Shown: positions 4,232-34,114 of the stretch, in pieces | Layout of the letters: each line of letters opens with the position of its first letter | Numbering within the stretch: position 1 is the first letter of the stretch | NCBI GenBank assembly: GCA_963725665.1 | Contig: CAVRZA010000006.1 | Location: 160,001 to 224,000, forward strand | Length of the DNA: 64,000 bases | Direction: 5' to 3' | Source: an uncultured Actinomycetes bacterium | GTDB taxonomy: Bacteria; Actinomycetota; Thermoleophilia; UBA2241 | Position numbers and translations under genes: made by a program | The notes under the pieces: model-generated | The model's database searches: none | What the model saw: the letters and a program-made list of their open reading frames with translations, nothing else | Told to the model about the DNA's origin: nothing

Positions 4232-4397
4232 GGAGGCCGTGCACCGGCCGTGAGGCGCGGGGCGCCGAGGCCGCGGCGCCGGGGCCGCGGCGGCCGCAGG
4301 CGTCGACGCGATGCGCCCGCTACCAGCGGCAACGACGGGCTGCCCGCGCGCGCATCAGCACTTGCCGATGGTGGGCGCCACATGCCATAACCACGAC

Positions 4398-5330
4398 ATG
4401 AGCTGGCCCGCATACCTCGACCTGCTCGCCTCCGGTGAGCTGGCGGAGCGCGCGCGCAGCGCCTCGCTCCTGCTCGTCGGCTGCCGCCTCTGCCCCCGTC
4501 GTTGCGGCGCCGACAGGTGGCGCGGCCGCACCGGTGTGTGCGGCATCGGCGCTCGGGCGCGGGTCGCCAGCTACGGCCCACACCACGGCGAGGAGCGCTG
4601 CCTCAGCGGCCCCAGCGGGTCGGGCACCATCTTCTTCAGCGGCTGCAACCTGGGCTGCGTCTTCTGCCAGAACTGGGAGATCTCGCACGGGCGGCGCGGC
4701 GGACACCTGGAGAGCGAGGAGGTCGCAGCGAGGGAGCTCGCCGGCATGATGCTCGAGCTGCAGGGGCTGGGCTGTCACAACATCAACTTCGTGACGCCCT
4801 CGCACGTCGTGCCGCAGATCCTCGAGGCGCTCGCCGTTGCCGTTCCGGAAGGGCTGCGCCTGCCGCTCGTCTACAACACCAGCGGCTACGACGCCGTCGA
4901 GACGCTGCGCCTGCTCGACGGCGTGGTCGACCTCTACATGCCCGACTTCAAGTACTGGGACAAGGAGGCGGCCGCGCGGGACCTCACGGCCGCCGACTAT
5001 CCCGAGGCGGCGCGCGAGGCCATCGTCGAGATGCACCGCCAGGTCGGCGACCTGGCGCTGGACGGCGACGGCCTCGCGCGCCGCGGCCTGCTCGTGCGCC
5101 ATCTCGTTATGCCCGGGATGCTCGACCAGAGCCGCCAGATCTTCGCCTGGCTCGCCGCACTGAGCCCTGGGACGGCGGTCAACGTCATGGCACAGTACCG
5201 CCCCGAGGGGCTCGCGGCGCGGCAGCAGAACGACTACCCCGAGCTCGCCCGTCAGCTGACGCGCAGCGACTACGCGGCGGCGCTCGACGAGGCCCGCGCA
5301 GCGGGCCTCCGGCGCGCCGCCCGCCTCTAG
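4398..5330 (+). CDS. Radical SAM protein, PflX-like (PFL-activase related)
   Basis: CRLCPRRC, HHGEE..LSG..GSGTIFFSGCNLGCVFCQN, GCHNINFVTPSH, VDLYMPDFKY, LLVRHLVMPG, NVMAQYRP. Confidence 0.9.
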   Translation: MSWPAYLDLLASGELAERARSASLLLVGCRLCPRRCGADRWRGRTGVCGIGARARVASYGPHHGEERCLSGPSGSGTIFFSGCNLGCVFCQNWEISHGRRGGHLESEEVAARELAGMMLELQGLGCHNINFVTPSHVVPQILEALAVAVPEGLRLPLVYNTSGYDAVETLRLLDGVVDLYMPDFKYWDKEAAARDLTAADYPEAAREAIVEMHRQVGDLALDGDGLARRGLLVRHLVMPGMLDQSRQIFAWLAALSPGTAVNVMAQYRPEGLAARQQNDYPELARQLTRSDYAAALDEARAAGLRRAARL

Positions 5331-6810: not shown

Positions 6811-6820
6811 CGCCTGCTCC

Positions 6821-7183
6821 TCAGGCCTGCCGGTGACCGTCGCCCGACGCAGCGCCGCCTTCGCCCGAAGCCCCGCCTCCAGCGCCGGCCGCCGGTTTCT
6901 CGCGCTCGCGGCTGCTCTTGAACATGCCCAGCATGCGCACCGTCACCACGTAGCCGCCGACCACGTTCATGGCCGCGAGCACGACGGCGAATACACCGAT
7001 TGTCTGCTCCAGGCCTGTCTGCGCGAAGCCGAGCGCGATCATGGCGCCCACGAGCACGATGCCGTGCACGAAGTTGGACCCGGACATGAGCGGGGTGTGC
7101 AGGATGACCGGCACGGCGCTGATGACGACGTAGCCCGTGAAGGCGGCCAGCATGAAGATGTAGAGGGCGTTCCAGCCGCTCAT
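6821..7183 (-). CDS. pntAB: NAD(P) transhydrogenase subunit alpha, part 2 (membrane)
   Basis: LHTPLMSGSNFVHG, NVVGGYVVTVRMLGMF; ATG 7183 overlaps the upstream stop. Confidence 0.93.
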   Translation of the reverse strand: MSGWNALYIFMLAAFTGYVVISAVPVILHTPLMSGSNFVHGIVLVGAMIALGFAQTGLEQTIGVFAVVLAAMNVVGGYVVTVRMLGMFKSSREREKPAAGAGGGASGEGGAASGDGHRQA

Positions 7184-8379
7184 GCGGCCCCTTCGATCTC
7201 TCCGCCCAGCTCCTCGCTTGGGGTGAACGTCTCCGCGCGAGAGAGCTCGGCCCACTGGATCGACTCGAGCGTCGGCGTGGCGCACACGCGCCCCTCCCGC
7301 GTGAGCACGCTCTCGGCGACGATCTCGTCATCCCAATCGAAGCGCAGCTCGCCGTCCTTGACGATCAGAGTGAGGAAGTTGAGCAGGTTGCGCGCATAGG
7401 TCTCGCTGGCGTGCACGGGTAGCATCGCGGGCACGTTGAGGGGCCCGTAGATCGTGACGTGGCCGTGCACCTTCACCTCTCCCGCGCGCGTGAGCTCGCA
7501 ATTGCCGCCGCCCTCCGCGGCGAGGTCGACGATCACCGAGCCCGGCTTCATGGCTTCGACCATCGCCGCCGTGACCAATAGCGGCGAGGGCTTGCCCGGG
7601 ATGGCCGCCGTCGTGATGACCGCGTCGGACGCCGCCACCCGTTCGGCGATCAGCGCGCGCTCACGATCCTTCTCCTCAGGCGTCAGCTCGCGCGCGTAGC
7701 CGCCTGTGGCCTCCGCCTCGAGCCCGAGGGAGAGGAACTTCGCGCCCAGAGACTCGACCTGCTCGCGCGTCACGGGCCGCACGTCGTAGGCCTCGACCAC
7801 GGCGCCCAGCCGCCGCGAGGTGGCGATGGCCTGCAGGCCTGCCACTCCCGCGCCGAGTATCAGCACCTTCACCGGCCGGATGGTCCCGGCGGGCGTGGTC
7901 AGCATCGGGAAGAAGCGTCCCATGCCGCAGGCGGCCATGAGCGCCGCCTTGTAGCCGGCCACGGAGGCCTGTGAGGTGAGGGCGTCCATCGACTGCGCGC
8001 GCGTGATCCTGGGGATGAGCTCGACGGCGAAGGCGGTCACGCCGCTGTCGCGCAGAGCCGCGACGCGCTCGGGGTAGCGATGCGGCGCCATGAAGCCCAG
8101 CACCGCCTGCCCGTGGCGCAGCCGGGCGATCTCGTCGAGGTCGGGTGGCTGGACCTTGAGCACGACGTCCGACCGCTCGTAGAGCTCGGCGGCCGTGGGC
8201 ACGAGGCGGGCGCCGGCGCCGACGTAGTCGTCGTCGAGGAAGTAGCTGCCGACGCCGGCGCCCGCCTCGACCAGCAGCTCGACGCCGAGAGCGAGAAGCT
8301 TGGGCGCCACTGTGGGCACCATCGCCACGCGCCGTTCGGCGGGGGTGATCTCTTTGGGAACGCCGACGCGAAGCGCCAT
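7180..8379 (-). CDS. pntAA: NAD(P) transhydrogenase subunit alpha, part 1
   Basis: GVPKE...ERRVA, PRITRAQSMDAL, GAGVAGLQAIAT, VIVDLAAEGGGNCELT. Confidence 0.95.
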   Translation of the reverse strand: MALRVGVPKEITPAERRVAMVPTVAPKLLALGVELLVEAGAGVGSYFLDDDYVGAGARLVPTAAELYERSDVVLKVQPPDLDEIARLRHGQAVLGFMAPHRYPERVAALRDSGVTAFAVELIPRITRAQSMDALTSQASVAGYKAALMAACGMGRFFPMLTTPAGTIRPVKVLILGAGVAGLQAIATSRRLGAVVEAYDVRPVTREQVESLGAKFLSLGLEAEATGGYARELTPEEKDRERALIAERVAASDAVITTAAIPGKPSPLLVTAAMVEAMKPGSVIVDLAAEGGGNCELTRAGEVKVHGHVTIYGPLNVPAMLPVHASETYARNLLNFLTLIVKDGELRFDWDDEIVAESVLTREGRVCATPTLESIQWAELSRAETFTPSEELGGEIEGAA

Positions 8380-8719
8380 CGCCTCTGTCCGCCTCCTTCG
8401 CGCACGCCCGCCCCCGCCGCGGCAGCCTCGCTGTCGTCCGGCCGAGCTGCATCGAGCCTCGCAATGGGACCTCAGCGACGGCGGCGGCGCCAAGCGCTTC
8501 GCCACAAGACGCGAGCGGGCGCGGGCCTACGAACTTGATGAAACCTCGTTCCTAGTCATCTCCAGCCCGCGCCCGCCCCAAACGCGCGGCACGGGTCCAG
8601 GACGCCCGGGCCAGAGGGGTGATTCTCAGCGGTGCACCTTGTTCGTTGTGCATGACGATTGTACACTACGAAACGTCAACTCTGATTGTATGTACATCGC
8701 GAAAGGAGGCTGCTACCTT

Positions 8720-9004
8720 TTGGACGACGACCGACGCGCGAGCAACCGCCGCACGACAGGCAGGGAGTCGACGAGAGTGCCCGTCCAGTTCAGGCTGCCC
8801 GATGACATCCGCGAGTTCCTCCGCGAGGAGGCTACAGAGCGCCACACGACGCAGACCGACGTCGTCATCGAGGCGCTGGGGCTGCTCCGCAAGCAGCGGC
8901 TCGATGCGCTCATGGCCGAGGGCTACCGCGAGATGGCCGAGACCGACCTCGCTCTGGCCGAGGAGTTCTGGCCCGTCGACCAGGAGACATGGCCAGAATG
9001 GTAG
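8720..9004 (+). CDS. Ribbon-helix-helix antitoxin (NdoAI/MazE-like)
   Basis: AGGAGG RBS then TTG; VQFRLPDDIREFL strand-helix; C-terminal MAEGYREMA..DLALAEE; overlaps the toxin gene. Confidence 0.75.
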   Translation: MDDDRRASNRRTTGRESTRVPVQFRLPDDIREFLREEATERHTTQTDVVIEALGLLRKQRLDALMAEGYREMAETDLALAEEFWPVDQETWPEW

Positions 9005-9342
9005 AGCGGCCCCGCCGTGGCGAGATCTACTGGGTGCGCCTCGATCCGGTCGTGGGTAGCGAACAGGGCGGGACACGACCAGCGCTCGTCGTGCAGAACG
9101 ACGTCGGCAACGAGCGAGCGCCGACCACAATCGTCGCACCGATCACGTCACGCCTTCCCGCCAGGGAGTATCCCTTCCAGGCCCGGCTGCCCGAGCACTT
9201 GCTGGGGAAGCCCTCCGTGGTCTCCTGCGCACAGATCCGCACCGTCGCCAAGGCCAGGCTCTCCCCCGAGCCGATCGCGGCGCTGCCCCCCAGCCTCATG
9301 CGCCAGGTCGATCGGGCGCTCATGGTCGCCCTCGGCCTCTAG
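8998..9342 (+). CDS. mazF: PemK/MazF-family toxin (mRNA interferase)
   Basis: RRGEIYWVRLDPVVGSEQGGTRPALVVQNDVGN, TIVAPITS, QIRTVAKARL. Confidence 0.95.
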   Translation: MVERPRRGEIYWVRLDPVVGSEQGGTRPALVVQNDVGNERAPTTIVAPITSRLPAREYPFQARLPEHLLGKPSVVSCAQIRTVAKARLSPEPIAALPPSLMRQVDRALMVALGL

Positions 9343-9462
9343 AGCCAGCGCTTCTCGTCCTTGGTCTGGGCGACGCCCCAGAACAGGACGCCGCGCCCGG
9401 CGAGGAACGCCCCCGCGCCGATCGGTCCCGTCCCAGAAGAGCGCGATCCACAGACTGTCCAT
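9339..9462 (-). pseudogene. Possible frameshifted small membrane protein (about 40 aa)
   Basis: GGAGG RBS then ATG 9462 (MDSLWIALFWDGT); a 1-nt shift gives IGAGAFLAGRGVLFWGVAQTKDEKRWL-stop. Confidence 0.35.
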
Positions 9463-9640
9463 GGGTCGTCCCCTCCCGTTGAACCGCACAGACAAGCCTG
9501 AGTTCCGGGTGACTTGCAAGGCTCTGGGGCAAAGCCTGCGCGCCTCTACGTAGGACGTCACCGTCAGCGAAAGCGAGCGGCAGCTCGAGTGGGCGCCGAG
9601 GCCGGGCTGAGTCAGGCGACACGGTGCGGGCCGAGAGAGC

Positions 9641-9716
9641 TGGCTCCTCGGGCAGGACTCGAACCTGCAACCCTCCGGTTAACAGCCGGATGCTCTACCA
9701 ATTGAGCTACCGAGGA
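9641..9716 (-). tRNA. tRNA-Asn (GTT)
   Basis: TCCTCGGTAGCTCAATTGGTAGAGCATCCGGCTGTTAACCGGAGGGTTGCAGGTTCGAGTCCTGCCCGAGGAGCCA; cloverleaf, GTT anticodon, encoded CCA. Confidence 0.97.
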
Positions 9717-9733
9717 GCGCTCGAGGCCGGTCA

Positions 9734-9762
9734 ATTATAGGGGCCGCCCCAGGGGGCGGCAA
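9734..9762 (-). promoter_or_regulatory. Sigma-70-type promoter of tRNA-Asn
   Basis: TTGCCG-17 nt-TATAAT on the minus strand just upstream of the tRNA. Confidence 0.65.
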
Positions 9763-9815
9763 ACGAGGCCGCAGATCGCGACGAGCCGCCGGCGGAGCCG
9801 GCGGCTCACTCTCTC

Positions 9816-22602: not shown

Positions 22603-23748
22603 CTACGCCGGGCGGCCCCACTCCCTCGCCACGGTGGCCCAAGCCCTGTCGTAGACGGCGCCGAACGAGCCGAGATCAGCCAGCCACTGGCCGTGGGCGA
22701 GCTGCAGGTCGCTGCGCGCGAAGGAGCGCTCGAGCGTCGGCAGGTACTTCCAGGCCTCAGGTTCGGCCGACTGAGTCCCGAGACGCTCGGCGACTCCACG
22801 TTGCACGCCGGGCCGCAGACAGAAGTCGAGGAAGGCATGAGCAGCGAGGGGGTTGGCCGTCGCGCGTGCCACGCACAGGACACGGGTGTCGATCTCGAAC
22901 CCGTCGGCCGGCAGGACGAAGTGCACACCGCCGCCGGGTGCACTCCTTGCTGCCCTCAGCGCCTGGGAACTCCAGCAGACGGCGACCGGCGCGCCGCCCC
23001 TGTCCGGGCCGGGCTCTCGCAGATTCGTCTTGAGAGCGATCAGGCGTCCCACAGCGCGATCGATCTGGCGCCTGTCGGTCGAATCGAGGGGGAGCCCCAG
23101 GGAGAGGAGCCCGATACCGATGACCGAACGCCCGCGGGCGTCGACTCGCACACCTCCTCGGAACCGCGGCTGCCAGAGGTCGGCCCAGGTGCGCGCCGGC
23201 GCACCGCCGAGCGCTCCCGGCTGCACGGCCAGACCGAGTGTCTCGAACTGGAACGGGACCGAGTACCTCGCCGGGTCACCGCGATCGTACGGCGGCGCAC
23301 GGAACGCTCCCTGCACGTAGTCGAAGTTGCCCACGAGTGTCATGTCGAGCGGCAGGAGCAGGCCCTCGCCGGCGAGACCGGGGACGAGACCGTCGGCCAT
23401 CACGAGGACGTCGTACGAGGCGACGCCCCTCAAAGACTCGGGCAACGCCACACCGTCGGCCGGCGCGGCCGCGCGAACGGCCACACCGGTGCGCCGCGAA
23501 AAGGCCTTCAGGACTACGGCGTCGATAGGGGCGGCTGGCGCGAGGAGCCGCACCGCACCGGTCGGGGAAGGTGTCGGCGACGGCGGCAGCGTCGAGCCCG
23601 ACGGCGCGAAGGTGGCTCTGCTGCAAGCGCTCGGCCAGTCGGCCAGGATAGTCGCTGAGAGGCCGGCGAAAACGAGCCGACGTACGAACGCCGCACGCGT
23701 CAGAGTGACGCCGTCGTCTTGCGCCCCGCTCTGAGATCCAGAGGCCAC
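22603..23748 (-). CDS. PotD/PotF-like ABC substrate-binding protein (divergent)
   Basis: [46 protein letters not shown]; Tat-like TRAAFVRR leader; own -10 TACAAT at 23780-23785. Confidence 0.75.
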
Positions 23749-23865
23749 GTCCCTCCCCCCTGATTGCGTACCTGATCCGATTGTACGCGGGGTTGACGCC
23801 TCTACACGGAGAGGATCACGAAGCGCACGCACGATCAACACGGTGCCTCAGGGTGTCTGAAACGC

Positions 23866-25884
23866 TCAGAGCGTGATGGGCCGCGCCAGTCGCGGACTCC
23901 CCATGTGATTGAACGCGCACAGGTGCTTCCGGCGGCGACCCACGACCAGGCCGGGAGCCACCAGCAGCGCACCGATCGCCACAGCCGCAAGCCCACCGGT
24001 GAGCCACAGGGGCCGGCGGGGCGAGCCGCCTGCGGCGCTCCCCCCGCCGGCCCCCGTCGTGCCACCGCTCGGTACCGAGCCCACGCGCACGCCGACCACG
24101 GCCACGGCCCCCGACGACGCCTGCCCGGTCGCGCTGCCGGTTGGCGGACCCGAAAGACTCTGAGTGGCACCTTGGCCGCCGGCCGCGGTCCCACCGCCTG
24201 AGGTCTGCCCTGCCCCCGACCCGGCCCCGGTGCCGGTACCGGATCCCCCACCGGAACCCGATCCCGACCCGGATCCCGCACCCGAGCCACCGATGCCGCC
24301 GACGTCGAGCGAGCCGCTTCCCGGCGTGTTACCCGTCCCTGTCGCTGCCCCGCCGTGGCCGTCCTTTCCCTTAGCGGTCGCCGACCGGTAGGTGATGGTG
24401 AGGTCGTACAGGGTCGGGGTCAACCCACGATCGCTCGTCGTGAGCGAGACCGTGTACTTAAGCTTCGTGTCCGTGAAACCCGTGGGGAACTTGTAGACTC
24501 CCGCACCGCCACTGAGGGCCACTCCGGAGGCGCCCTGCGGACGCCAGACGCCGTCGGATCCCGCGTACCAGAGCCTCAGGCTCGTGCCCGCCGGCACGTC
24601 GGCGTTCCAGTGCAGCGCGAGGAACCGCTTACCTTGCTTGGGACGCCCGCAGTCGATCCAGCGCGAGTCCATCTTGGCGCCGCCGTTGTTGCCGAGCAGC
24701 GCCACCGTGCGTGTGGCCCGGTCGCAGAGCAGGAGCGCACCGTCGGCCGCTCGCGGCGTACCACTCGCATCGGGCGCCTTGCCGCTGATGGCCTCGGCGG
24801 CGCTCGGGTCGTCGAGGCTGCCGCCTACCGGCGGGTACTCCCAGAGGATGCTCGAGGCTGTCCAGCCGTGCAGGTCGCCGTTGATACGGTAGTCGCCGCT
24901 GCGTACGGCGATGACCCTGTGGTTGCCGCCGTCGACGATGAGCGTCCGGTCGTTCGACAGCCGGACGGCGCCCGCGGGTGTGTCGAGGTAGCCCGGCGCC
25001 GAGCCGGGGCTGCCGGCGACGCCGTACTGCCAGCGGAGCGCTCCGGCGGAGTCCACCGCGAATACGCGATGCTGGCCGGCGTCGGTGATGAGAGTGACGC
25101 CGCCGGCGTGCCGCTGCGCCTGGACGGGCCGCAGCAGCCCGCCCGGCGCCGAGTCGGCGGACAATTCCCAGACGACGCCGCCGCCCGAGCCGCCCGTGAC
25201 GAGGTTCGCCGACCAGCTCACCTCGACGACGCGCGGCGCCCCCGCGGCGGCGTCGGCGATGAGGACCGTCGGCGCCCCGCCGGTGCCCTGGGGCACGTAC
25301 TCTGCGCACACGGGCTGGAGCAGATGACCGGGTGAGGCACCAGGCTCGCCGGTCACCCCGTACTGCCAGACGATCTCCTTGGTCTCGTAGGACACGGCAA
25401 AGACGCGATCAGCGCCAGGGTCGGCGATGAGGACGTAAGAGCTCGAGCCGACGACGATCCGCCGCGCCCAGCAGGGAGCGCTCAAGCCGGGGCCCGCGTA
25501 CGACCAGACGACCCGTGTGAGGGTCTGCGACGAGCCGTCCTCGCCCAGGACCAGCACGCTGGCGCCGCACGTGAGCAGCACGTCTCCGACGCCGGCCCAG
25601 GCGACCGAGCGTACCGCGCCGGCGCTCGCGCCCTCGGACGGCACCTGCGCCGACCAGATGGGCCCGCGTTCGCCGATTCGCAGCGACTGGTCGGCGGCGT
25701 CGGCGCGGTACTGGGTGACGACATCGAGACCGGATGCTTCGTCCCTCGAGCGATGGGCGAAGTCAAAGGAGTGGCCGGGCACGCCGAGCCTGTAGGAGAC
25801 GAGGTCGGCGGCCCCAGCCACCGAGACGCAGGTCAGCGCGAGGACGACCGCAAGGAGGAGACACGTGAGGACCCGTACCCTCAC
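23866..25884 (-). CDS. Exported beta-propeller (NHL-like repeat) protein with Gly/Ser linker and C-terminal membrane anchor
   Basis: Signal peptide; repeats LIAD...RV(F)AV...WQYGV-G-PG--PG-L--P; GSGSGSG linker; C-terminal TM then RRRK. Confidence 0.75.
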   Translation of the reverse strand: MRVRVLTCLLLAVVLALTCVSVAGAADLVSYRLGVPGHSFDFAHRSRDEASGLDVVTQYRADAADQSLRIGERGPIWSAQVPSEGASAGAVRSVAWAGVGDVLLTCGASVLVLGEDGSSQTLTRVVWSYAGPGLSAPCWARRIVVGSSSYVLIADPGADRVFAVSYETKEIVWQYGVTGEPGASPGHLLQPVCAEYVPQGTGGAPTVLIADAAAGAPRVVEVSWSANLVTGGSGGGVVWELSADSAPGGLLRPVQAQRHAGGVTLITDAGQHRVFAVDSAGALRWQYGVAGSPGSAPGYLDTPAGAVRLSNDRTLIVDGGNHRVIAVRSGDYRINGDLHGWTASSILWEYPPVGGSLDDPSAAEAISGKAPDASGTPRAADGALLLCDRATRTVALLGNNGGAKMDSRWIDCGRPKQGKRFLALHWNADVPAGTSLRLWYAGSDGVWRPQGASGVALSGGAGVYKFPTGFTDTKLKYTVSLTTSDRGLTPTLYDLTITYRSATAKGKDGHGGAATGTGNTPGSGSLDVGGIGGSGAGSGSGSGSGGGSGTGTGAGSGAGQTSGGGTAAGGQGATQSLSGPPTGSATGQASSGAVAVVGVRVGSVPSGGTTGAGGGSAAGGSPRRPLWLTGGLAAVAIGALLVAPGLVVGRRRKHLCAFNHMGSPRLARPITL

Positions 25885-26969
25885 GGCCTCTCCTCTATCA
25901 CATGGACCGCCTCGACCGGGATCTCGAGCGTCACCGGCGCCCCTACCGACAGCGCGCTGTCGGCCGCGTAGGCCCGCGGTAGAAACGCCACGAGGCCGGC
26001 GGCGTCAAGCTCCACAAGCCAGCCCGTGGAGGTGGAGCGCAGGCCGGCGACGCGAGCGCTTACGAGGTTCCTACTCGAGACGTCCGCCGCCTCCGATGCC
26101 CTCACTACGATGCGGTCGGCGCGCACGACGACCGTCACCGGCCCGCGTGCTGGACACGCGGCGTCGAGCGTGAGCCCACCCGTCAGCCTCACCCGGCAGC
26201 CGCCGCCGTTGGCCTCCGCCACCGCCGGGAGGACGTTGCGCGCTCCCGTGAGACGGGCCACGGCAGCGCTGGCCGGACGGTCGAGAATGTCGTCTGCGGT
26301 ACCCGACTGGGCGACGAGGCCGTCGACGAGCGCGACGCAGCGCGGCGCGACGGCGACGGCCTCGTCGAGACTGTGTGTCACGTGAAGCACGGTGAGACCG
26401 AAGCGCTGGTGGACGGAGCGCAGCTCGTCCTGAAGCTCCTCGCGCGCCCGCTGGTCGAGGGCGCTCAGGGGCTCGTCGAGCAGCAACGCGTGCGGCTGCA
26501 CGGCGAGCGCCCTTGCCAGCGCGACGCGCTGCCGCTCGCCGCCCGACAGCGTCTGCGGCTTGCGCGTCAGGGACTGATCGATCCCCAGAGCCTCGGCCAA
26601 GGCGCGCACGGCGGCGCTGTCGCGCCGCCGTCTGGACCAGGGTAGGAAGCGCCTGAGACCACGATCGCGACGCACTTCGCCGCCGAAGGCGATGTTGCCG
26701 GCGATGTCGAGGTGCGGAAAGAGCAGGGCATCCTGCCCGACGAGACCGACGCCGCGCCGCTCGGGCGGCAGCGACGTGACCTCACGGCCAGCGATCGTCA
26801 ACCGGCCCGCAGCGACGCCGCGCAGGCCGGCGATCGTCTCGAGGAGCACGCTCTTGCCGGCGCCGCTGCGCCCCACAACGGCCACGTACTCGCCGTCGCC
26901 GACCTCGAGGTCGAGGGGACCCAGCGTGAAACCCCCCGCAGAGACCACGACTGCCTCGGCGCGGATCAC
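25881..26969 (-). CDS. wtpC: Tungstate/molybdate ABC transporter ATPase (WtpC/ModC-like)
   Basis: GRSGAGKS, LPPERRGVG, LSGGERQRVALARAL, LLLDEP, HVTH; C-terminal TOBE-like region. Confidence 0.85.
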   Translation of the reverse strand: MIRAEAVVVSAGGFTLGPLDLEVGDGEYVAVVGRSGAGKSVLLETIAGLRGVAAGRLTIAGREVTSLPPERRGVGLVGQDALLFPHLDIAGNIAFGGEVRRDRGLRRFLPWSRRRRDSAAVRALAEALGIDQSLTRKPQTLSGGERQRVALARALAVQPHALLLDEPLSALDQRAREELQDELRSVHQRFGLTVLHVTHSLDEAVAVAPRCVALVDGLVAQSGTADDILDRPASAAVARLTGARNVLPAVAEANGGGCRVRLTGGLTLDAACPARGPVTVVVRADRIVVRASEAADVSSRNLVSARVAGLRSTSTGWLVELDAAGLVAFLPRAYAADSALSVGAPVTLEIPVEAVHVIEERP

Positions 26970-27808
26970 GGCGAGCTCCTATTCCCCAGCACCAGGCGCA
27001 CCGCGATGAAGACGGCCAACGCGACGAGAACAATGAGCAGCGCCACCGGTTGGGCCGCCTCGAGGCCGAAACCTTCGAAGCGCTCGAACACGAGCACCGG
27101 CACGGTCTTCGGGTTGTAGGCCAGGATCACGACCGCGCCGAACTCACTCATTCCTCGTGCCCACATGAGCAGCGCCCCGGCCAGCACGCCGCGACCGGCC
27201 AGCGGCAGCGCCACGCGCGCGAAGGCGACGCCCTGGGAGGCGCCCAGCGTACGCGCGAGTTGCTCGTAGCGCGGATCAACCAGCGCGAACGCCTCGCGCG
27301 CGGTGTCGACCAGGAACGGGAGGCTGACGAAGAGCATGGCGACCGCGATGCCGGCCAGGGTATCGGTGAACGTCACGCCGAGATGCGCGAAACCCCTCCC
27401 CAGCACTCCCGTACGGCCGAACACCAGCAGAAGGGCGATGCCGGCCGCCGTGTGCGGGAACACGATCGGCAGGTCGATGATGGCCTCGACGAGACGCTTG
27501 CCGGCGAACGAGCGCCGCGCCAGCACATAAGCGAGGGGCACGCCGCCGATCGTCGCCAGCCCGGTCGCGATCAGAGCCGCCTCCAGCGTGACGATGAGTG
27601 CGTCTCGCACGTCGGCCTCGCGCGCCGCCTGCATCAGGTCGCCGAAGCCGGTGCGGGCTACGAGCGAGACGAGCGGCGCGGCCAGGAACACGAGCACGAC
27701 GAGGCCGAGCGCCCAGGCGACGATGGTGAAGACGGCGGGACGCCGGCGGGGCCGGCCGGCCCCGCCGGCGTCCCGCGCCTGCATGGTCCGCGTCTCGTTC
27801 CCCCTCAC
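26966..27808 (-). CDS. wtpB: Tungstate/molybdate ABC transporter permease (WtpB/ModB-like)
   Basis: GVPLAYVLAR, IIDLPIVFPHTAAGIALL, MLFVSLPF, ARTLGAS, WARGMSEFGAV..AYNP. Confidence 0.88.
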   Translation of the reverse strand: MRGNETRTMQARDAGGAGRPRRRPAVFTIVAWALGLVVLVFLAAPLVSLVARTGFGDLMQAAREADVRDALIVTLEAALIATGLATIGGVPLAYVLARRSFAGKRLVEAIIDLPIVFPHTAAGIALLLVFGRTGVLGRGFAHLGVTFTDTLAGIAVAMLFVSLPFLVDTAREAFALVDPRYEQLARTLGASQGVAFARVALPLAGRGVLAGALLMWARGMSEFGAVVILAYNPKTVPVLVFERFEGFGLEAAQPVALLIVLVALAVFIAVRLVLGNRSSP

Positions 27809-28929
27809 GGCGTGGCTCCCACCCGCAGCGGAGCACACAACGGCCGCAGCATGGCCGGCAGCTTGTCCATGTGGTCCACGCGCGCCGGTGTCACCGATGG
27901 CTGGTAGGCCTCGGCGAGGATCCGGCGCCCCTCAGGTCCGAGCAGAAACGCAACGAAACGCTCAGCCTCGGCGTGGTCGGGCGCGTTACGCGGGATCGTC
28001 ACCGCGTAGGCGATCGGCGCGCCGCCGAACACGGGCTTGACACTCGCGAACCGCTGGAACGCGATGGCGACTGCCACGCGCGCATACGCAGCCGCGTAGC
28101 GTGGCGAACCCAGGTCGATCTGCGCTGGCAGGCGGACGAAAGGCAGCTCGTGCTGACGCACGACGCTCTCGTACTCGAATGCGCAGTCGAGGTCGCCCGA
28201 TTCCAGCAGGGCCACAAGCTGGATGCTCGCCCCGCGGAGCACGAGTCCCGAGCCGGCGACCCCCTGCAGCAACTCGGGCACGTCGATCACGTTGACGCCG
28301 TCCTTGCCCGTTACCGTCACCGGCGGAGTGAAACGTCCGACGGTGAGATCCTCGAAGAGATGGTCGTCGCGGTACTGTCGCTCGGCAAGCTGCAGGACCA
28401 TCAAAGCACGGTAGCCGGCGGCGTCGAAGCGCGGGTCGGCCAAGCCGAAGCGCACGCCCTGCGTGGTGACAGCCTTGACCCAGTCGCCCGAGCGGAAGAG
28501 CGGCGCGAAGCGGCTGGCCGGCGAGTAGGCGAGTACCATGCGGTTCGTCGCGAACACGGCATACCAGTCAGCCGTCGGTGTCGCCCCACCGCTACCCGCC
28601 GGGTCCTCCATCAGCACCGTGATCAGGGCCGCGTCGGCCGAGGCCAGCACGTCGAAGCGCCGATGCAGGTCCGTCACCTGACGGATAACCTGGATGCTGC
28701 CGTGACTCTCGGTCTGCACCTCGGCGCCGGGATGCGCCTTCTCGTACGCTGTGGCCAGGCGGTCGAAGGGGATGATCAGGCTGCCGGCGTCGATGACCGC
28801 GAGCTTGTCGGCCGACGAGGAGCCGCAGCCGCTCGCGACGCTGGCCGCGGCAACCACGGCTGCTGCGGCCAGCGCCGCGAGCGCCGTGAACAGCACTGCA
28901 CGATGGAACGGCCCAGCGACCCGGCTCAC
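27805..28929 (-). CDS. wtpA: WtpA-family tungstate/molybdate-binding lipoprotein
   Basis: Lipobox ASGC; AGSLIIPF, ESHGSIQVIRQVTDL, DVLASAD, FATNRMVLAYS, DAAGYR, LLESGDLD.AFEYESV..QH; start uncertain (ORF open to 29040). Confidence 0.85.
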   Translation of the reverse strand: MSRVAGPFHRAVLFTALAALAAAAVVAAASVASGCGSSSADKLAVIDAGSLIIPFDRLATAYEKAHPGAEVQTESHGSIQVIRQVTDLHRRFDVLASADAALITVLMEDPAGSGGATPTADWYAVFATNRMVLAYSPASRFAPLFRSGDWVKAVTTQGVRFGLADPRFDAAGYRALMVLQLAERQYRDDHLFEDLTVGRFTPPVTVTGKDGVNVIDVPELLQGVAGSGLVLRGASIQLVALLESGDLDCAFEYESVVRQHELPFVRLPAQIDLGSPRYAAAYARVAVAIAFQRFASVKPVFGGAPIAYAVTIPRNAPDHAEAERFVAFLLGPEGRRILAEAYQPSVTPARVDHMDKLPAMLRPLCAPLRVGATP

Positions 28930-28951
28930 GACCGGCGGGATGCCACGCGGC

Positions 28952-29007
28952 GCCGACCCGACGGCGCGTGCCGACCCGACGGCGCGTGCCGACCCGACGG
29001 CGCGTGC
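28952..29007. repeat. 18-bp tandem repeat x3
   Basis: GCCGACCCGACGGCGCGT, three exact copies. Confidence 0.9.
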
Positions 29008-29047
29008 ACATCCTCTGCGGCGTCTGCCCCAAGGGCCCACGGCGGCC

Positions 29048-30061
29048 TCACTCGATCCTCAGCAGAACCTTTGTGATACGGCCGATCGCCAGGTCGTCGG
29101 TCAGCCCGGGCCCCACGAGCCGCAGCGGGAAGTCCTGTGGGGGAAGCTCGCCGCCGTCGACCTTGCCGGCAAGCAGAACATCCTTGTGCTTCATGACGAA
29201 GCGGGAGCTCAGGAACGCCTTGGCCCCGGTGGAGCCGATCAGCTCGATGGTGTAGTCGCGTGCCGCCAGCTTGCGGTTGAACGCGCCGGCCCCGTGGGTG
29301 TGGCCGTCGTCAACCGAGCCCACGACGAGCCAAAGAGGGATGCCCTCCCAACGCTGGCCCTCGGAGTCGACCCACCCCGAGCCGTGGCAGCCGGGCGACG
29401 CGCAAGAGACGTACGAGGCACGCGTGATGGTAGAACGCGTCTTGCCTTCGATCGAGGCGCTCCACTCGCCCATGGCGCGCTTGACCTCGATGCGATCGAC
29501 CAGCTTGACCGACCAATGGCCGTCGACCACGACGTCAGGCCCCTTCTCGGCCAGAACGAGGCGCAGCGGACCCTCGTCGGGTGATAGTGGCTTGCCCTCG
29601 TGCGCGTAGGCGATGAGCAGCGTGAGCTCGTCGACCGGCGGACGTTCGGCGCTCGTGGCGGGATCGAACGTGGTGAACCCGGCCCCTGCCACCTGACCGT
29701 TGGAGAACGTCATCCCGTAGCCGTCCTTGGCCAGGACGGTGACACCCTCAGCGGAGCCGACCCCGCCGACCGCCTCCACGAGCGACTGAAGGGGGACGCC
29801 GGTGTACTCCTGTGGCGCGGTGATAACCCCCACACTGCTCTTCATGCCGGCGTACCCGGTGAACGAGGGCAGCTGCCGCAACTGAGCCATGGAGTAGGTC
29901 ATGGTGCGCTCGCCGCCCACGACCGTGAGCGCGGTCGGCCCGGCGACGCTGGTCGCGCTGCTCCCGGGGCTCGACTGTCCGGACGCGCAACCGATGACTC
30001 CCAGCACAGTGAGGACGATCACGACGGCGAGACCGCCGAAAGTGTACCTGCGAGCAAGCAT
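29048..30061 (-). CDS. Lipoprotein with two sulfite-oxidase-like molybdopterin-binding (Oxidored_molyb-like) domains
   Basis: Lipobox VIGC; YTGVPL..L, V.AKDGY...F, AYAHEGKPL...GPLRL, WSVKLVDRIEV; second domain WEGIPLW...LAGKVDG..L...FPLRLVG. Confidence 0.7.
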   Translation of the reverse strand: MLARRYTFGGLAVVIVLTVLGVIGCASGQSSPGSSATSVAGPTALTVVGGERTMTYSMAQLRQLPSFTGYAGMKSSVGVITAPQEYTGVPLQSLVEAVGGVGSAEGVTVLAKDGYGMTFSNGQVAGAGFTTFDPATSAERPPVDELTLLIAYAHEGKPLSPDEGPLRLVLAEKGPDVVVDGHWSVKLVDRIEVKRAMGEWSASIEGKTRSTITRASYVSCASPGCHGSGWVDSEGQRWEGIPLWLVVGSVDDGHTHGAGAFNRKLAARDYTIELIGSTGAKAFLSSRFVMKHKDVLLAGKVDGGELPPQDFPLRLVGPGLTDDLAIGRITKVLLRIE

Positions 30062-30163
30062 CGCCGACCCCTCCTCGGCAGCCATCTTGCGGCGGCTTCG
30101 GGCGGGCGGCGCCTCCCGGCGCCGCCCGCCCGCCGCACCTACCATCCCGGAGACCGGGATCTC

Positions 30164-31222
30164 TCAGAGACGGGGCAGAAGCTGGATCTTGGTGACGCGA
30201 CCGATCCACTGCGAGCTAGACAGTTTCGGTCCGACCAACTTCAATGGGTAGCTGGAGGTCAGCTCCTTGCCGTCGAGCTTGTTGGCCAGGATGAGGCGCT
30301 CCTTGTTGATGATGAAGCGCGACTTCATGATCACCGAGCGGCCGACGGCGTTGGCGACCTTGATGCGGTAGCCGCGCAGGGCGAGCGCCTCGTTGAAGGC
30401 GCCGTAGCCGCCGTGACCCTTGCCCCCGTCGACCTTGCCGATGCAGAGGAAGAACGGCACGCCGGTCCAGACGCGCCCCTTGGCGTCCTTGTAGCTCGCG
30501 CCGTGGCAGCCTGGCGCGGCACACGACAGGAACGACTCGCGGTCGAGCGTGTAGGTCTGCCGTGTGTGGTTCTTGCGCCACAGGCCGTACATGCGCACCT
30601 TCCAGTCGGGAAGCTGCTGACCGATCTGGATGCTGCCAACCCACTTCACGAGCAGGTGGCCGTCGACAACCTGACCCGACGACGTCTGCGCGACGAAGAT
30701 GCGCAGAGGGCCGTCGCCGCTGGGCGGCCCGGGGATGGGCAGATAGCCAGGGCCCTGCCCGTAACCGACCACCATGGTAAACGGCTGGGTCGGCGTGACT
30801 TGGTCGCCGGTTGCCGGATCGTAAGCCGTCCAGGCGCCGTTCACGGCCTGGTCGTGCGTGTAGGTCATACCGTAGTTGTCGGTGCCCAGGACGGTGACCC
30901 CGTCGGTAGGTCCGATCCCGCCGACGAGCGTGGCCAGGTCGCCGATCGAGACGCCCTTGATGGGGTCGGGCCCGAATATGTTGCCGGCGCTGTTCTTGAA
31001 GCCGGCGAAGCCCTCGTAGGGCGTGAGGGCCTGGAGCTGCGTCATGGTGAGCTGCACCTGCGTGCCGGTCGGACCGGTCACGGTGAGGACCGGAGCCTCG
31101 TCGGCCCGGGCGACGGCGGGGTGGACGGGCGCAGCCGTCCACCCCGCCGCCACGACCACCGCCAGGAACAGGATCAGGGCGAGGATGGGCGCTGCGGCCT
31201 GCGGCCGTAGCGCCCATCGCAC
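30164..31222 (-). CDS. Exported protein with two molybdopterin-binding-like domains (paralog of 29048-30061)
   Basis: Signal peptide ending ARA; LTMTQLQAL, KGVSIGDL, DNYGMTY, DGPLRI, VVDGHLLVKWVGSI, CAAPGCH, LANKLDG..L..SYPLKLVG; AGGAGG before GTG. Confidence 0.7.
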   Translation of the reverse strand: MRWALRPQAAAPILALILFLAVVVAAGWTAAPVHPAVARADEAPVLTVTGPTGTQVQLTMTQLQALTPYEGFAGFKNSAGNIFGPDPIKGVSIGDLATLVGGIGPTDGVTVLGTDNYGMTYTHDQAVNGAWTAYDPATGDQVTPTQPFTMVVGYGQGPGYLPIPGPPSGDGPLRIFVAQTSSGQVVDGHLLVKWVGSIQIGQQLPDWKVRMYGLWRKNHTRQTYTLDRESFLSCAAPGCHGASYKDAKGRVWTGVPFFLCIGKVDGGKGHGGYGAFNEALALRGYRIKVANAVGRSVIMKSRFIINKERLILANKLDGKELTSSYPLKLVGPKLSSSQWIGRVTKIQLLPRL

Positions 31223-31261
31223 CACCCTCCTTGTGCGTTTCTCAGCCATCACGACCACCGC

Positions 31262-32843
31262 CTAGAAGATGAGTTTGATGGTCACGACCTGAGAGGCCGA
31301 GAGCTTGCCGAAGAACGGCTTGATGAACGACCCCACATAGCGGTACGGGCCCTCGTCGGTCGAGAGCATCGCGCCCCCCTTGAGGCAGGCCACTATCCAG
31401 CCCTTCTTGCCGACGATCGTCTTGCTGCTGATCGTCACCTTGTAGCCGTCACGGGCGATGAACTGGATCTTGTAGCCCTTGAGGGCCCGCGCCTTGTTGA
31501 AGGTGCTCGGGAACTTGTCGTCGACCAGGCCGACCAGCTTGTAGAGCGACTGCCCGCGGTAGACCGCCTTCAGCGTCGGGTTGATGTCGCCGGCCTTGGT
31601 GCCGTCCCAGACCACCCCGCTTGGGAACTTGGCGTAGGTGATCGTGCGCTTCAACTTGCCGTTGAGGGTGAGTTTTGTGGTGTAGTCGGGATAGACCGGC
31701 TTGCCGAGCTCGATGCGCAGCACGCCGGCGGGCTTCTGCTTGCCCGTCAGATTGTCGCTGCAGATCTTGGCCGGCCAGGCCGGCTTCCACGAGTAGGTGC
31801 CGTCGCCGTTGTCGGTGATCGAGGGAATCGGTGCGAGCTGCCCGCCGTCAACGCGATCGGCCAGGACGATGTCGTTCTTGTAGGCCACCTGCATCGACGT
31901 GAGCGCGGCGGTGAAACCGTCGCAACCGACGATCGTCACCGGGTAGTCCATGCCGGCGAGGTTGCGGTTGAAGGTGGCCGCGTCGGAGTCATCGGCCAGC
32001 GCGAGCAGACGCCAGAGCGCCACCCCGGTGTAGGTGTGGTCGTCGCTCGGGTCGTCGGGCGTCTTGTTGTTGTCGACCCAGGAGACCGGGTACTTGGTGG
32101 CCAGCGTGCGCGATCTGCGTGCCGGATTCGTCGACCGACCGCGCCCCGCGGAGCTGCAGCATCCAGGCCCACGGCGATGTGGGCGGCGTGCTCGGCGGCG
32201 TGACGCCGACCGCGTAGACGACGACGCGCGCGATGCCGGCGGGTTTCTGGTTGCCGGGCAGGCTGGCGCTGCACAGCTTGATCGGCCAGGCCGGCTTCCA
32301 CGACGGGAGAGTCGGCGGTGGCCCCGGTGTCCCCGCCTTGATCGTGCCCATCGGCAGCGGCAGTCCGTTGGCGAGATCAGCCACGATGATGTCGTCCTTG
32401 CGTGCGAGTTGGCTGCTCGTGAAGGTGGCCGTGAACCCGTCGAGCCCGATCACCTGGACGGCGTAATCCTTGGCCGCCAGAGTGTCGTTGAACGAGCCCG
32501 GTGTCGCGTCATCGATCCGCGCGATGAGGCGCCAGAGCGGCACGCCGCTGTAGACGACGTCGTCGCTGGGATCGTCCGGCGTCTTGTTGTCGTCGGTCCA
32601 GCTCGCCGGGTGCAGGGCCGCCAGCGCGCGCAGCTGCTCGTAGGTCATGCCCTCGCTGCGGGCCGCCCCGCGCAGCTGGACGATCCAGCCGAACCCTTCG
32701 TCGGCGACAGCGCCCGGCGCAGGGCCGGCCGCTGTCGCCACGCGAGGCGCCGCCCCGGCCCCGGCGACGACGATGAGCAGCGTGACGAGCAGCGCCGCCA
32801 GGCAGACGAGGACCAGCCCCGTCCGTGTCTTGTGGTTCCCCAT
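31262..32843 (-). pseudogene. Exported protein with three molybdopterin-binding-like domains, split by a 1-nt frameshift near 32110
   Basis: Domain 1 SWTDDNKTPDDPSDDVVYSGVPLWRL is repeated as SWVDNNKTPDDPSDDHTYTGVALWRL only after a frame change at ATC-G-CGC-ACG; may be a sequencing error. Confidence 0.75.
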
Positions 32844-33075
32844 GGCTCCAGTTCCTCCTTGCTAGCTCGAGAGGACGTGGTGTCGTCCCCCCCTCCCCTC
32901 TGCGTTCTCAGAGGCGCCCGGGCAAGAGCTCCAGTCGAAAGCGTGACGACGCCGAGAGGGGTGCTCCCCGTGCGGAGAAGACGGAGCCGGCCCGAGTCGG
33001 CCGGGCGCGCCGACGCTCTGGCCGGCTGCGGAGGGGACGAAGAGACCCGCTCCACAGGCGGCAGCGGGCCGTGAC

Positions 33076-33190
33076 GGCGCTGCTCTCCTTTCCGCACTGG
33101 GAGACACGGCGCTTTCGCGCTGTACCCTGCCGGCGCAAGCTCCATGGGCCTACCAGGCCTTTAGGACTCAAGCGCTCGGAGAACGACGCC
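33076..33190 (-). ncRNA. Moco RNA motif riboswitch, P3-less (Tuco-type) variant
   Basis: Minus strand GTTCTCCGAGC...CCTAAA-GGCCT-GGT-AGGCC-CATGG...GCCGG-CAGGGT-ACAGCGC-GAAA-GCGCCGT-GTCTCCC-AGTGC-GGAAAGGAGAGC; P1 pairs GTTCTCC/GGAGAGC; lies upstream of Mo/W transport genes. Confidence 0.85.
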
Positions 33191-33220
33191 ATTCTACGTG
33201 CAATGAGTCACAAGGTGCAA
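33191..33220 (-). promoter_or_regulatory. Sigma-70-type promoter for the riboswitch operon
   Basis: TTGCAC-18 nt-TAGAAT immediately upstream of the aptamer. Confidence 0.55.
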
Positions 33221-33379: not shown

Positions 33380-34114
33380 TCAGGCCCGGGCGAAGCGCAG
33401 CGAGCGGAGCTGCGCGCCCGTGTGGTAGGCGTAGAGGTCGCGGAGGTGGCGGAAGGCCTCCTCCACGCCCTCGTCGCCCGGCAGGGCGCGCAGCTCCGCG
33501 AGAGGCAGACCGAGGGCGCGCCGCAACGCCGCGACGGCGTCGGGCGTGATGGGCGCGCCCTCGTGCAGGCAGCGCTCGCAGACGAGGCCGCCGCGGGCGG
33601 CCGAGAAGGCGAGCGCCATGCCGTCGGTGGCGCCGCAGACGGCACACTGGTCGAGCACCGGCAGGTAGCCGGCCTCACTCAGGAGCTTGACGAAGGCGCC
33701 GAGCACGAGCGGCGCCCGCAGCGCGGAGCCGGCGAAGCCGGCGTCGATCTCGCGTAACGCGCGCGCCAGGAGATTGAAGGCCCGCTCCTCCGGCTCGCCC
33801 TCGGCGAACAACCCAGCCGCCGCCTCGCACAGCAGCCCCGCCGCAACCATAGCTTCGCGGTCCTCGTGCAGACGCAGGTTGGTGCGCGCAAGCTGCGCCG
33901 AGGTGACGGTGAAGAGGCTGCGCCCGCGGAAGAGGACGAGATCGACCAGGCCGAAGGGCTCCAGACGACCTCCCCAGCGCGACTTCGTGCGCCGCACGCC
34001 CTTGACGACCGCATCGACACGCCCGAGCTCCTTCGTGAAGAGCGTGACGATGCGGTCGGCCTCGCCGAGGGGGCGCGAGCTCAGAACGACGGCGCGGACG
34101 GTCTCGTAGCGCAT
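33380..34114 (-). CDS. recO: DNA repair protein RecO
   Basis: LGEADRIVTLFT..LG....VKGVRRTKSR.GGRLEPF; CAVCG...GGLVCERC zinc finger. Confidence 0.95.
   Translation of the reverse strand: MRYETVRAVVLSSRPLGEADRIVTLFTKELGRVDAVVKGVRRTKSRWGGRLEPFGLVDLVLFRGRSLFTVTSAQLARTNLRLHEDREAMVAAGLLCEAAAGLFAEGEPEERAFNLLARALREIDAGFAGSALRAPLVLGAFVKLLSEAGYLPVLDQCAVCGATDGMALAFSAARGGLVCERCLHEGAPITPDAVAALRRALGLPLAELRALPGDEGVEEAFRHLRDLYAYHTGAQLRSLRFARA

Follow-up and report, generated by a model that had tools for sequence, protein, structure and literature searches.

Why should a bacterium place genes for three exported proteins with the sulfite oxidase (SUOX) fold between a cofactor riboswitch and the genes of a tungstate importer? 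The arrangement is found in a stretch of 64,000 nucleotides from an uncultured Actinomycetes bacterium (the window, G000:C6:160001-224000, where G000 is the source genome of 3.7 Mb and about 70% GC; all positions are in window numbering). Here a co-oriented unit on the minus strand sits between recO (33380-34114) and glyQS (from about 22450 downward) and runs, in this order, through a molybdenum cofactor (Moco) riboswitch of the P3-less subtype, P1, P2, P3, wtpA, wtpB, wtpC and Prop (the P3 missing from the riboswitch is an RNA hairpin and not the protein P3). The unit is a riboswitch-controlled uptake operon for molybdenum and tungsten (Mo/W) of the ATP-binding cassette (ABC) type, with a conserved, uncharacterised extracytoplasmic SUOX-fold module. 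It is best explained as a cofactor-repressed tungsten (possibly also molybdenum) acquisition operon with WtpABC as its core. Within it, we lean towards a view of P1-P3 as an accessory module outside the cytoplasm, which would capture or process W/Mo on behalf of the importer by a chemistry that we infer. The features of the unit are as follows.

33191..33196, minus strand: TAGAAT hexamer, -10-like, at the 5' edge of the aptamer and overlapping its first bases; a lead only
33069..33193, minus strand: Moco RNA motif aptamer, P3-less (RF01055, 61.5 bits)
32109..32843, minus strand: 5' part of P1 (frame A), with signal peptide, SUOX-like repeat r1 and the start of r2; ATG at 32843 behind AAGGAGG
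31262..32107, minus strand: 3' part of P1 (frame B), with the remainder of r2 and repeat r3; frameshift at about 32108
30164..31225, minus strand: P2, an exported two-domain SUOX-like protein; longest open reading frame (ORF) 30164-31258, likely start GTG at 31225 or 31222, preceded by AAGGAGG
29048..30061, minus strand: P3, a lipoprotein with two SUOX-fold domains; likely start ATG at 30061, ORF 29048-30145, lipobox VIGC
28952..29007, no strand: perfect 18-bp x 3.1 tandem repeat (Tandem Repeats Finder, 100% matches, score 112; unit GCCGACCCGACGGCGCGT on the plus strand), which separates the P3 stop from the likely wtpA start and is read by the longest wtpA ORF as ARAVGS three times
27805..28929, minus strand: wtpA, a lipoprotein substrate-binding protein; longest ORF 27805-29040, lipobox ASGC read from the sequence
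26966..27808, minus strand: wtpB, a permease; longest ORF 26966-27838
25881..26969, minus strand: wtpC, an ATPase; best match NF040840
23866..25884, minus strand: Prop, with signal peptide, NHL-type propeller region (relatives and a paralog carry NHL), Gly/Ser-rich linker and C-terminal membrane helix

The riboswitch and the importer

The aptamer matches RF01055 along the full model (1-135) with 61.5 bits against a gathering score of 36 and an E of 2.4e-12 (cmscan; 33069-33193, minus strand). Because the columns of the P3 hairpin are gapped in the cmscan alignment, it was assigned to the P3-less subtype, and its match is 125 nt long against 159 nt in the genome's sole P3-bearing copy. P1 starts about 225 nt downstream. 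That P3-less aptamers sense the tungsten cofactor (Tuco) is a matter of correlation and inference in Regulski 2008 (PMC2408646), not of experiment, and those of G000 also precede xanthine-dehydrogenase-type genes, which bears on their selectivity for that cofactor. The earlier note had placed a promoter in front of the aptamer. A consensus scan of the leader returned no promoter-like site; what is left of the claim is the hexamer TAGAAT, whose TAnnnT positions (33196-33191) are nearly invariant in 24 aligned riboswitch leaders. The minimum free energy (MFE) fold of the leader has a z of -2.06.

Downstream of P3, the substrate-binding protein passes the WtpA equivalog model TIGR03730 (270.3 bits, cut-off 242.75) and stays below the cut-off of NF003196 (275.6 bits against 355). 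The best NCBIfam matches of its partners are likewise Wtp models and below their cut-offs, NF040839 for WtpB (275.2 bits against 340) and NF040840 for WtpC (278.1 bits against 440). Judged by its sequence, the unit's WtpA is a bona fide WtpA, for which tungstate transport is predicted. Three GTGA overlaps join wtpA to wtpB (27808), wtpB to wtpC (26969) and wtpC to Prop (25884), just as the earlier note had read the last four genes. Its single co-oriented unit of riboswitch, P1-P3, wtpABC and propeller gene is borne out as well, by the RF01055 score and by the minus-strand orientation of every gene.

Seven sulfite-oxidase-like domains

All seven domains of P1-P3 are SUOX-like, as the earlier note had proposed, because the fold matches of domains 1 and 2, the profile matches of P1 and the paralogy of P2 and P3 point the same way. 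P3 passes the Pfam model PF00174 (51.5 bits, cut-off 24, E 1.2e-13). P2 scores below that cut-off (17.5 bits, E 0.0032); it is a paralog of P3, with 37% identity across 338 aa, and can be aligned with the P3 family (alignment A1). The AlphaFold model of P3 has a pLDDT of 82, and its domain 1 matches PruR (7kp2, Z 15.3), SoxC (2xts, Z 15.1) and SorA (Z 14.8). Folded alone, domain 2 reaches a pLDDT of 93.8 and is a complete SUOX fold, with matches to SoxC (Z 16.1, 122 aa, 2.4 A), PruR (Z 15.1 and 14.7) and YedY (Z 11.3); the next unrelated structure follows at Z 4.7. The P1 pieces have no Pfam match, and their fold was read from hhalign comparisons with P3 domain 2, which gave a probability of 99.2 for r1 and r2 (E 3e-19) and of 98.9 for r3 (E 1e-17). 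The P3 family profile finds only weak matches among solved structures (best E 0.03), and it is the comparison of folds and of profiles that supports the SUOX homology.

The two reading frames of P1 adjoin at 32107-32109, where the assembly has one base too many (at about 32108); by analogy with repeat 1, no residue is missing at the break. In L008, L010, L020 and L022, P1 is one ORF of 530-563 aa. The locus is matched only by sequencing runs of DNA contigs, at small shares (0.07-0.12). Short-read contigs of related strains (runs X1 and X2) are one letter shorter at 32111, and P1 is a single ORF there; record 7 of X1 covers 30118-32506 with 2385 nt and 197 differing letters. Either the assembly is wrong at the break or the lesion is specific to this strain; the contigs of X1 and X2 come from relatives and do not decide between the two. 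At L016, L017, L028 and L011, P1 is naturally two genes, one of about 380-440 aa (r1 and r2) and a separate one of 123-157 aa (r3). In the orthologs L020:314-2005, L022:7054-8718 and L028:7062-8309, r1 and r2 are near-identical, by recent tandem duplication or by assembly collapse or expansion.

The signals read from the sequences make P1 secreted, P2 secreted or signal-anchored and P3 a lipoprotein, so that the secreted, lipoprotein and anchored components of the earlier note hold. The signals of P1-P3 and of most P3 homologs are of the Sec or lipoprotein type, with no conserved twin arginine, and lipoboxes recur among the homologs of P3 and WtpA. The domains measure 140-175 aa, the size of PruR, and do not have the N-terminal segment of the enzymes. 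The column of the Mo-coordinating Cys is occupied in only two of the seven domains, domain 2 of P2 and of P3. Domain 1 of P2 and P3 has no Cys anywhere, with Ser in the Mo-ligand column (hhalign probability 72), and r1-r3 of P1 have none in the aligned segment. The predicted complex of mature P3 with mature WtpA (alignments A1 and A2) scored 0.00 and 0.26, below the mark of 0.32, in a run without controls, which is not evidence either way.

It is unlikely that P1-P3 are ordinary Moco enzymes. Such a view would make them exported Moco or Tuco oxidoreductases that merely share the transporter's regulon, and it can draw on the PF00174 match of P3, on the source names of the homologs ('molybdopterin-dependent oxidoreductase', 'YedY'), on the Mo-ligand Cys column kept in domain 2, and on the listing of Moco-using enzyme genes behind Moco RNAs (Regulski 2008, PMC2408646). 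However, the canonical SUOX and YuiH-like enzymes of G000 carry twin-arginine translocation (Tat) motifs of the form RRxFL (RRWFL and RRTFL) together with the signature Cys (TMECAGNGR; FHCVEGW), whereas P1-P3 have no twin-arginine motif, no Cys in five of seven domains, and PruR-sized domains in which the N-terminal segment is missing. It also makes little sense to shut off a cofactor-dependent enzyme when its cofactor is plentiful. With the gene neighbourhoods given below, which set the proteins beside a binding-protein gene throughout and in one case fuse them to it, we regard the shared-regulon explanation as very unlikely.

The Cys-His site of the second domains

Domain 2 reads SCAAPGCHG in P2 and SCASPGCHG in P3, and C-A-(S/A)-P-G-C-H-G is invariant in the family alignment. 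By hhalign (probability 93.7, E 1.9e-7), its second Cys falls on the Cys that serves as Mo ligand in the YuiH-like enzyme of G000. In the fetched loci taken together, the two Cys are separated by X4 (n=101), X2 (n=8) or X3 (n=1), and the His always comes next. A later His (VDDxxxH) is confined to domains with the CXnCH motif; the P1 repeats have neither. P2 and P3 have at most one CXnCH each. The Cys-His dyad and the later His are retained in distant relatives, many of which, like the wtp-linked P3-like protein of a second genome, G399, read G-X4-C-H with a single Cys. The conserved core is therefore the Cys-His dyad with the later His, at the old metal position.

In its sequence pattern the motif resembles a heme c attachment site. 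P2 and P3 could be monoheme c-type cytochromes, with heme at C-Xn-C-H in the old Moco pocket, the later His as distal ligand and a redox role at the surface. A spacer that varies while C-H is kept speaks for such proteins, and so does the restriction of the later His to domains with the motif. The genome also encodes a complete cytochrome c maturation (Ccm) system and many multiheme cytochromes, and the NCBIfam model NF041762, a 'GEGP motif-containing diheme protein', shares the SUOX core with proteins of the P1-P3 type. But scores against NF041762 are only 25-68 bits, far under its cut-off of 300; no cytochrome c family of Pfam or NCBIfam matches P1-P3; and the first Cys is Gly in many relatives, including that of G399, which would be unusual for bacterial heme c attachment. 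We hold heme attachment to be a tentative possibility. It is also compatible with a module that serves the importer, of which it would be a sub-form if the redox activity serves W/Mo mobilisation.

The Cys-less domains share a different motif. D-G-Y or D-G-F is kept in domain 1 and in r1-r3 of P1, and D-G-Y is invariant in domain 1. It aligns, weakly (E 0.03), with the pterin-stacking N-x-Y motif of PruR, ALNDY against AKDGY. The P-W motif of PruR is absent from the SUOX-like proteins of the window, and domain 2 does not have the aromatic D-G-Y position.

Two further readings start from PruR. In the first, the domains would bind extracellular molybdopterin, Moco, Tuco or their breakdown products, and either recover the metal for WtpABC or pass the cofactor on. 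SUOX is a Moco-binding fold, and the top structures include PruR, which was solved with pterin (PMC11194511); the alignment of N-x-Y with D-G-Y, the D-G-Y/F of r1-r3, the Mo-ligand Cys column kept in domain 2 and a riboswitch that senses the cofactor itself all fit. Yet the truncated pocket of PruR is probably unable to hold Moco (PMC11194511), and in the window it is the Cys-bearing domain 2 that has no aromatic D-G-Y position. The unit's sole transporter is an oxyanion importer, with a WtpA over the equivalog cut-off. The free cofactor is also very labile, and we consider salvage of this kind unlikely.

In the second reading, the domains would act as sensors for a pterin or a different small molecule outside the cell and would regulate a membrane partner, either the transporter or some other protein. 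PruR is among the best structural matches of both domains, and it works by binding the periplasmic part of a membrane protein (PMC11194511). However, the unit has no DcpA-like cyclase/phosphodiesterase or other signalling gene, the P-W motif is missing, and seven domains over three proteins would be excessive for a sensor. This is the role to which we give the least credence.

The locus in other genomes and metagenomes

A scan of a genome collection with P3 gave 26 loci, mainly from metagenome-assembled genomes (MAGs) of Thermoleophilia/Actinomycetota, together with one that is labelled Deltaproteobacteria and another from Chloroflexota. When metagenomes were scanned with the family alignment, 53 loci with 35-68% identity were retrieved. 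The order P1-P2-P3-wtpA-wtpB-wtpC is recurrent among the fetched genome loci. The P3-like gene is followed by wtpA within 1.5 kb in all 23 genome loci that were testable (those with at least 1.3 kb of sequence downstream of P3; 26 were fetched), in 20 of the 22 metagenome loci that could be tested (of 53 fetched) and in G399. One metagenome exception, L103, has a TupA-type binding protein in the place of wtpA (PBP_like_2, E 2e-44); the other is L097, where the P3-like ORF runs on into methyltransferase-like sequence (L097:170-2188), in a possible chimeric contig or rearrangement. The linkage between P3 and wtpA persists to 35-40% identity and in the Chloroflexota MAG, L027.

The riboswitch recurs as well. 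Of 22 testable genome loci, 21 have an RF01055 match upstream of the genes and on their strand (four more loci begin inside the operon), and a P3-less Moco RNA precedes the genes in eight of the ten close metagenome loci with upstream sequence. The genome locus without an aptamer is L027, which has the order wtpA-P3-wtpABC. Additional genes can stand between aptamer and P1: an ORF of 307-314 aa in L008 (5836-6780) and L010 (5890-6813), of which the L008 copy, the one of the pair that was scanned, has no Pfam match, and a 492-aa TIG/Big_1 protein in L026 (6487-7965).

A distant group of loci encodes a three-domain P3-like protein preceded by differing control devices. The Rfam model was used for these loci, because our custom covariance model R1 is narrow (effective number 2.65) and gave a single weak match among them. 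In L101, a Moco RNA of 146 nt lies directly before the distant P3-like gene. In L099, a regulator with ArsR-HTH and PBP_like (PF12727) domains takes this position, and in G399 a GntR-HTH/PBP_like (PF12727) regulator is followed by the P3-like gene and wtpABC, with no aptamer. For both regulators the best NCBIfam match is the C-terminal domain of a molybdopterin-biosynthesis protein. G399 also encodes, divergently, an SLH-anchored two-domain relative. Finally, in L104 (294-1013) the C-terminal third of a TupA-like binding protein (PBP_like_2) is fused to a short SUOX-like domain and followed by a P3-like gene; its N-terminal part lies in another frame or was lost at the contig start.

The earlier note had asked whether homologs in other genomes are linked to importer genes and to Moco RNA, and in many genomes they are, to wtp or occasionally tup and to Moco RNA or other W/Mo-type regulators. 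Constant adjacency to a binding-protein gene down to 35% identity, three unrelated W/Mo-type control devices, a fusion, surface anchors (lipid, SLH, membrane) and the missing Tat signals together argue that the SUOX-like proteins act outside the cell with the importer and not as independent Moco enzymes. The regulators of other lineages bear on cofactor salvage as well. The earlier note had allowed for the capture either of W/Mo or of intact metal-pterin cofactor. The latter is the less likely option, because WtpA is bona fide and regulators elsewhere carry a PBP_like domain of the oxyanion-binding type, and a role in the capture or processing of W/Mo is favoured.

The host genome

G000 has six Moco RNAs. 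Only one of them has a P3 stem, and it stands before a mod-like transporter and a Mo-bisPGD-type enzyme. The other five, all P3-less, lie ahead of the P1-P3-wtp unit, a set of tupABC, an unknown gene, moaA and moaC, two xanthine-dehydrogenase-type sets and an aldehyde-dehydrogenase/mod-like set. Thirteen AFOR_N matches correspond to about 12 genes of the AOR family, one of them split by a TGA on C3; with so many AOR-type genes, the demand for tungsten should be high.

The tup operon (G000:C6:504000-519700, L120) begins with a TupA-like protein, TupB and TupC with TOBE, and continues with a 365-aa exported protein (no Pfam match), MoaA, MoaC and CcmE-CcmF-CcmA-CcmB-CcmC. In other genomes the position of its tupABC is filled by P1-P3-wtpABC. 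Genes for ccmE and ccmF also lie downstream of wtp-moa in L012, L018, L028 and L030. G000 has one complete Ccm system, with one CcmF and no ResB, and its multiheme cytochrome ORFs carry 21, 18, 13, 12 and 11 CXXCH, several of them clustered at C2:35-46 kb. No other system for cytochrome c maturation exists in G000, so the proximity of the Ccm genes to moa is unspecific, which counts against heme c in P2 and P3. The idea that ccmE and ccmF near wtp-moa form a dedicated heme lyase for P2 and P3 was dropped, given the single CcmF, the missing ResB, the many multiheme cytochromes and the moa-ccm genes that also stand behind tup.

What the module may do

The favoured capture-or-processing role can be put into a sequence of steps. 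At the cell surface, beside the lipoprotein WtpA, the module would bind or process the forms of W/Mo present in peat or sediment and supply WtpA with oxyanion. The domains that have no Cys, five in all (r1-r3 of P1 and the first domains of P2 and P3), would be binding modules of the PruR kind, and domain 2 of P2 and P3 a reactive or metal-holding site, which may carry bare metal, oxo-metal or covalent heme c. Prop would be a lineage-specific accessory. When tungsten or molybdenum cofactor is plentiful, the riboswitch would shut the unit off, on the presumed OFF logic. A more specific proposal is that the domain 2 pocket has been repurposed for the metal itself (Cys(-Cys)-His) or for heme, and that the seven-domain array mobilises thio-, organic- or mineral-bound W, or strips W-pterin, and feeds WtpA. 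We consider this possible but doubtful. If true, no protein-based system for mobilising tungsten outside the cell would have been known before it, nor any accessory component of a Mo/W ABC importer.

When the phylum was sampled evenly, matches at E<=1e-8 came from 14 of 401 genomes, and only those of G000 and G399 were full-length. In a sample of the class, at least 64 of 401 genomes match at E<=1e-30. World-wide, the profile retrieves 1386 cluster representatives at E<=0.001, of which 338 reach E<=1e-30, and many wider-family representatives have 800-3100 aa and up to nine matched stretches. A distinct membrane-anchored SUOX-like family of about 510 aa is found in other Actinomycetota (L036-L047, e.g. 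L037:775-2310); L037 scores 67.8 bits against NF041762.

Several observations weigh against the favoured explanation. The class matches are confined to two families (39 of 79 genomes sampled from one, 24 of 61 from the other), with none found in the other sampled families. A single class, through two of its families, thus supplies most of the loci, and the synteny is to a large extent inherited and did not evolve independently. The CXnCH signature occurs in only 31 of the 148 top wider-family representatives, and so few carriers, together with the giant multi-domain members, indicate that the fold is not tied to W/Mo uptake everywhere. At L097 there is no wtpA in the 1.4 kb downstream of the P3-like gene, and L082 and L083 have no upstream aptamer. 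Behind the aptamer of the window, a consensus terminator scan and the MFE fold of the leader gave no intrinsic terminator and no clear expression platform. P1 is frameshifted in this assembly, so that the module may be partly decayed here, and the host organism is known from metagenomes only.

Acquisition of W/Mo at picomolar to nanomolar levels has been explained so far only through high-affinity oxyanion binding proteins, and much of the W/Mo in peat, sediment and other places rich in sulfide or organic matter is not free oxyanion. A conserved, regulated surface set on a tungstate importer, in AOR-rich organisms, is a concrete candidate for the missing step. A large group of proteins annotated 'molybdopterin-dependent oxidoreductase' or 'YedY' are probably not Moco enzymes, and the conserved Cys-His at the old Mo position offers biochemists a defined target.

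Prop and the neighbouring genes

The membrane-anchored beta-propeller of the earlier note is upheld in part. Prop itself has no Pfam match. Its relatives (28-39% identity) carry NHL (PF01436), PQQ_2 (PF13360) or Arylsulfotran_2 (PF14269), its paralog in G000 (L055:6360-8624) carries NHL (E 1e-9), and its Atlas score to NHL clusters is 0.77; the signal peptide and C-terminal membrane helix were read from the sequence. Prop follows wtpC in the closest loci only (L007-L010 and L068), and a Prop-like ORF comes after an aptamer in L029. The paralog lies in L055 (G000:C7:30000-42647), where two divergent Moco RNAs are 360 nt apart (3838-3962, minus strand, and 4322-4442, plus strand) and where the NHL gene (6360-8624, minus strand) is divergent from a ModA-like protein with a C-terminal IPT/TIG (8563-9771, plus strand).

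A lone gene for a PotD-like solute-binding protein (22603-23841, minus strand) begins 25 nt past Prop, with no adjoining permease or ATPase; it is not kept in L007-L010 and has about nine paralogs in the genome. The window also holds a tRNA gene at 9644-9716 (minus strand, 73.5 bits), and the remainder is housekeeping (sigma-70, primase, PPDK, glyQS, recO, prmC, RF-1, thyX and rho).

Comparison with known systems

To our knowledge, no Mod, Tup or Wtp system has been described with conserved exported proteins as accessories. The earlier note knew of no characterised system with such an architecture, and no published description came to light: a literature search, with most subscription journals outside its reach, found no account of SUOX-like exported proteins partnering Wtp, Tup or Mod importers, which is not proof of absence. 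The archaeal WtpABC of Pyrococcus furiosus has the same A-B-C order, and the unit resembles it in a WtpA over the equivalog cut-off and in Wtp models that are best for B and C. It differs in its bacterial (Thermoleophilia-type) host, in a WtpA that is a lipoprotein, and in a WtpB and WtpC under their cut-offs. The nearest operons are those of mod, tup, wtp and moa genes under Moco/Tuco riboswitches (Regulski 2008, PMC2408646), which share the RNA family, the P3-less subtype and the position before a tungstate-type ABC importer. Here, in contrast, three genes with seven SUOX-fold domains stand between aptamer and wtpA. The same paper also records two P3-less Moco RNAs that precede putative sulphite oxidase genes in S. 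wolfei; it treats them as a possible, unexplained exception and, in the accessible part of its text, does not link them to transport. These cases may be the same association as that of P1-P3.

Among proteins, PruR of Proteobacteria, a periplasmic pterin-binder, is likewise a small exported SUOX-fold domain in which the Mo-ligand Cys is missing (PMC11194511). It matches both P3 domains with Z 14.5-15.3, and its pterin-sandwich Tyr aligns, weakly, with the invariant Tyr of D-G-Y. However, PruR is a single domain paired with the cyclic di-GMP enzyme DcpA, whereas here tandem domains stand beside an ABC binding protein; the P-W motif (Cys to Trp in PruR) is not present, and domain 2 keeps Cys-His at the metal position. 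The idea of the SUOX fold as an exported binding module would thereby extend beyond Proteobacteria. Burroughs et al. 2007 (PMC1949818) describe the fold in secreted multi-domain proteins and assign it to a ligand- and metal-binding clade. In the accessible text of a 2026 review of pterin signalling (PMC13259868), no riboswitch or transporter is mentioned in connection with SUOX-like binders.

The SUOX enzymes themselves (sulfite oxidase, SorA, SoxC, YedY/MsrP and the YuiH type) share with P1-P3 the fold (Z 11-16), the (D/G)EGPLRLV motif and the Cys column of domain 2. P1-P3 differ from them in having no Tat signal, no dimerisation domain and no N-terminal cofactor-binding segment, and most of their domains have no Cys. 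With NF041762, which suggests that heme-bearing SUOX-like proteins exist, they share a SUOX core around G-V-P-L, D-G-Y and (G/D)EGP (E 4e-8 to 1e-18); at 32.9 bits against the cut-off of 300 (25-68 bits when relatives are included), the proteins of the window are not members. The aptamer and WtpA are thus members of known families, and the SUOX-like module between them stands outside the SUOX enzymes by its Cys and Tat features, outside PruR by motif and partner, and outside NF041762 by score.

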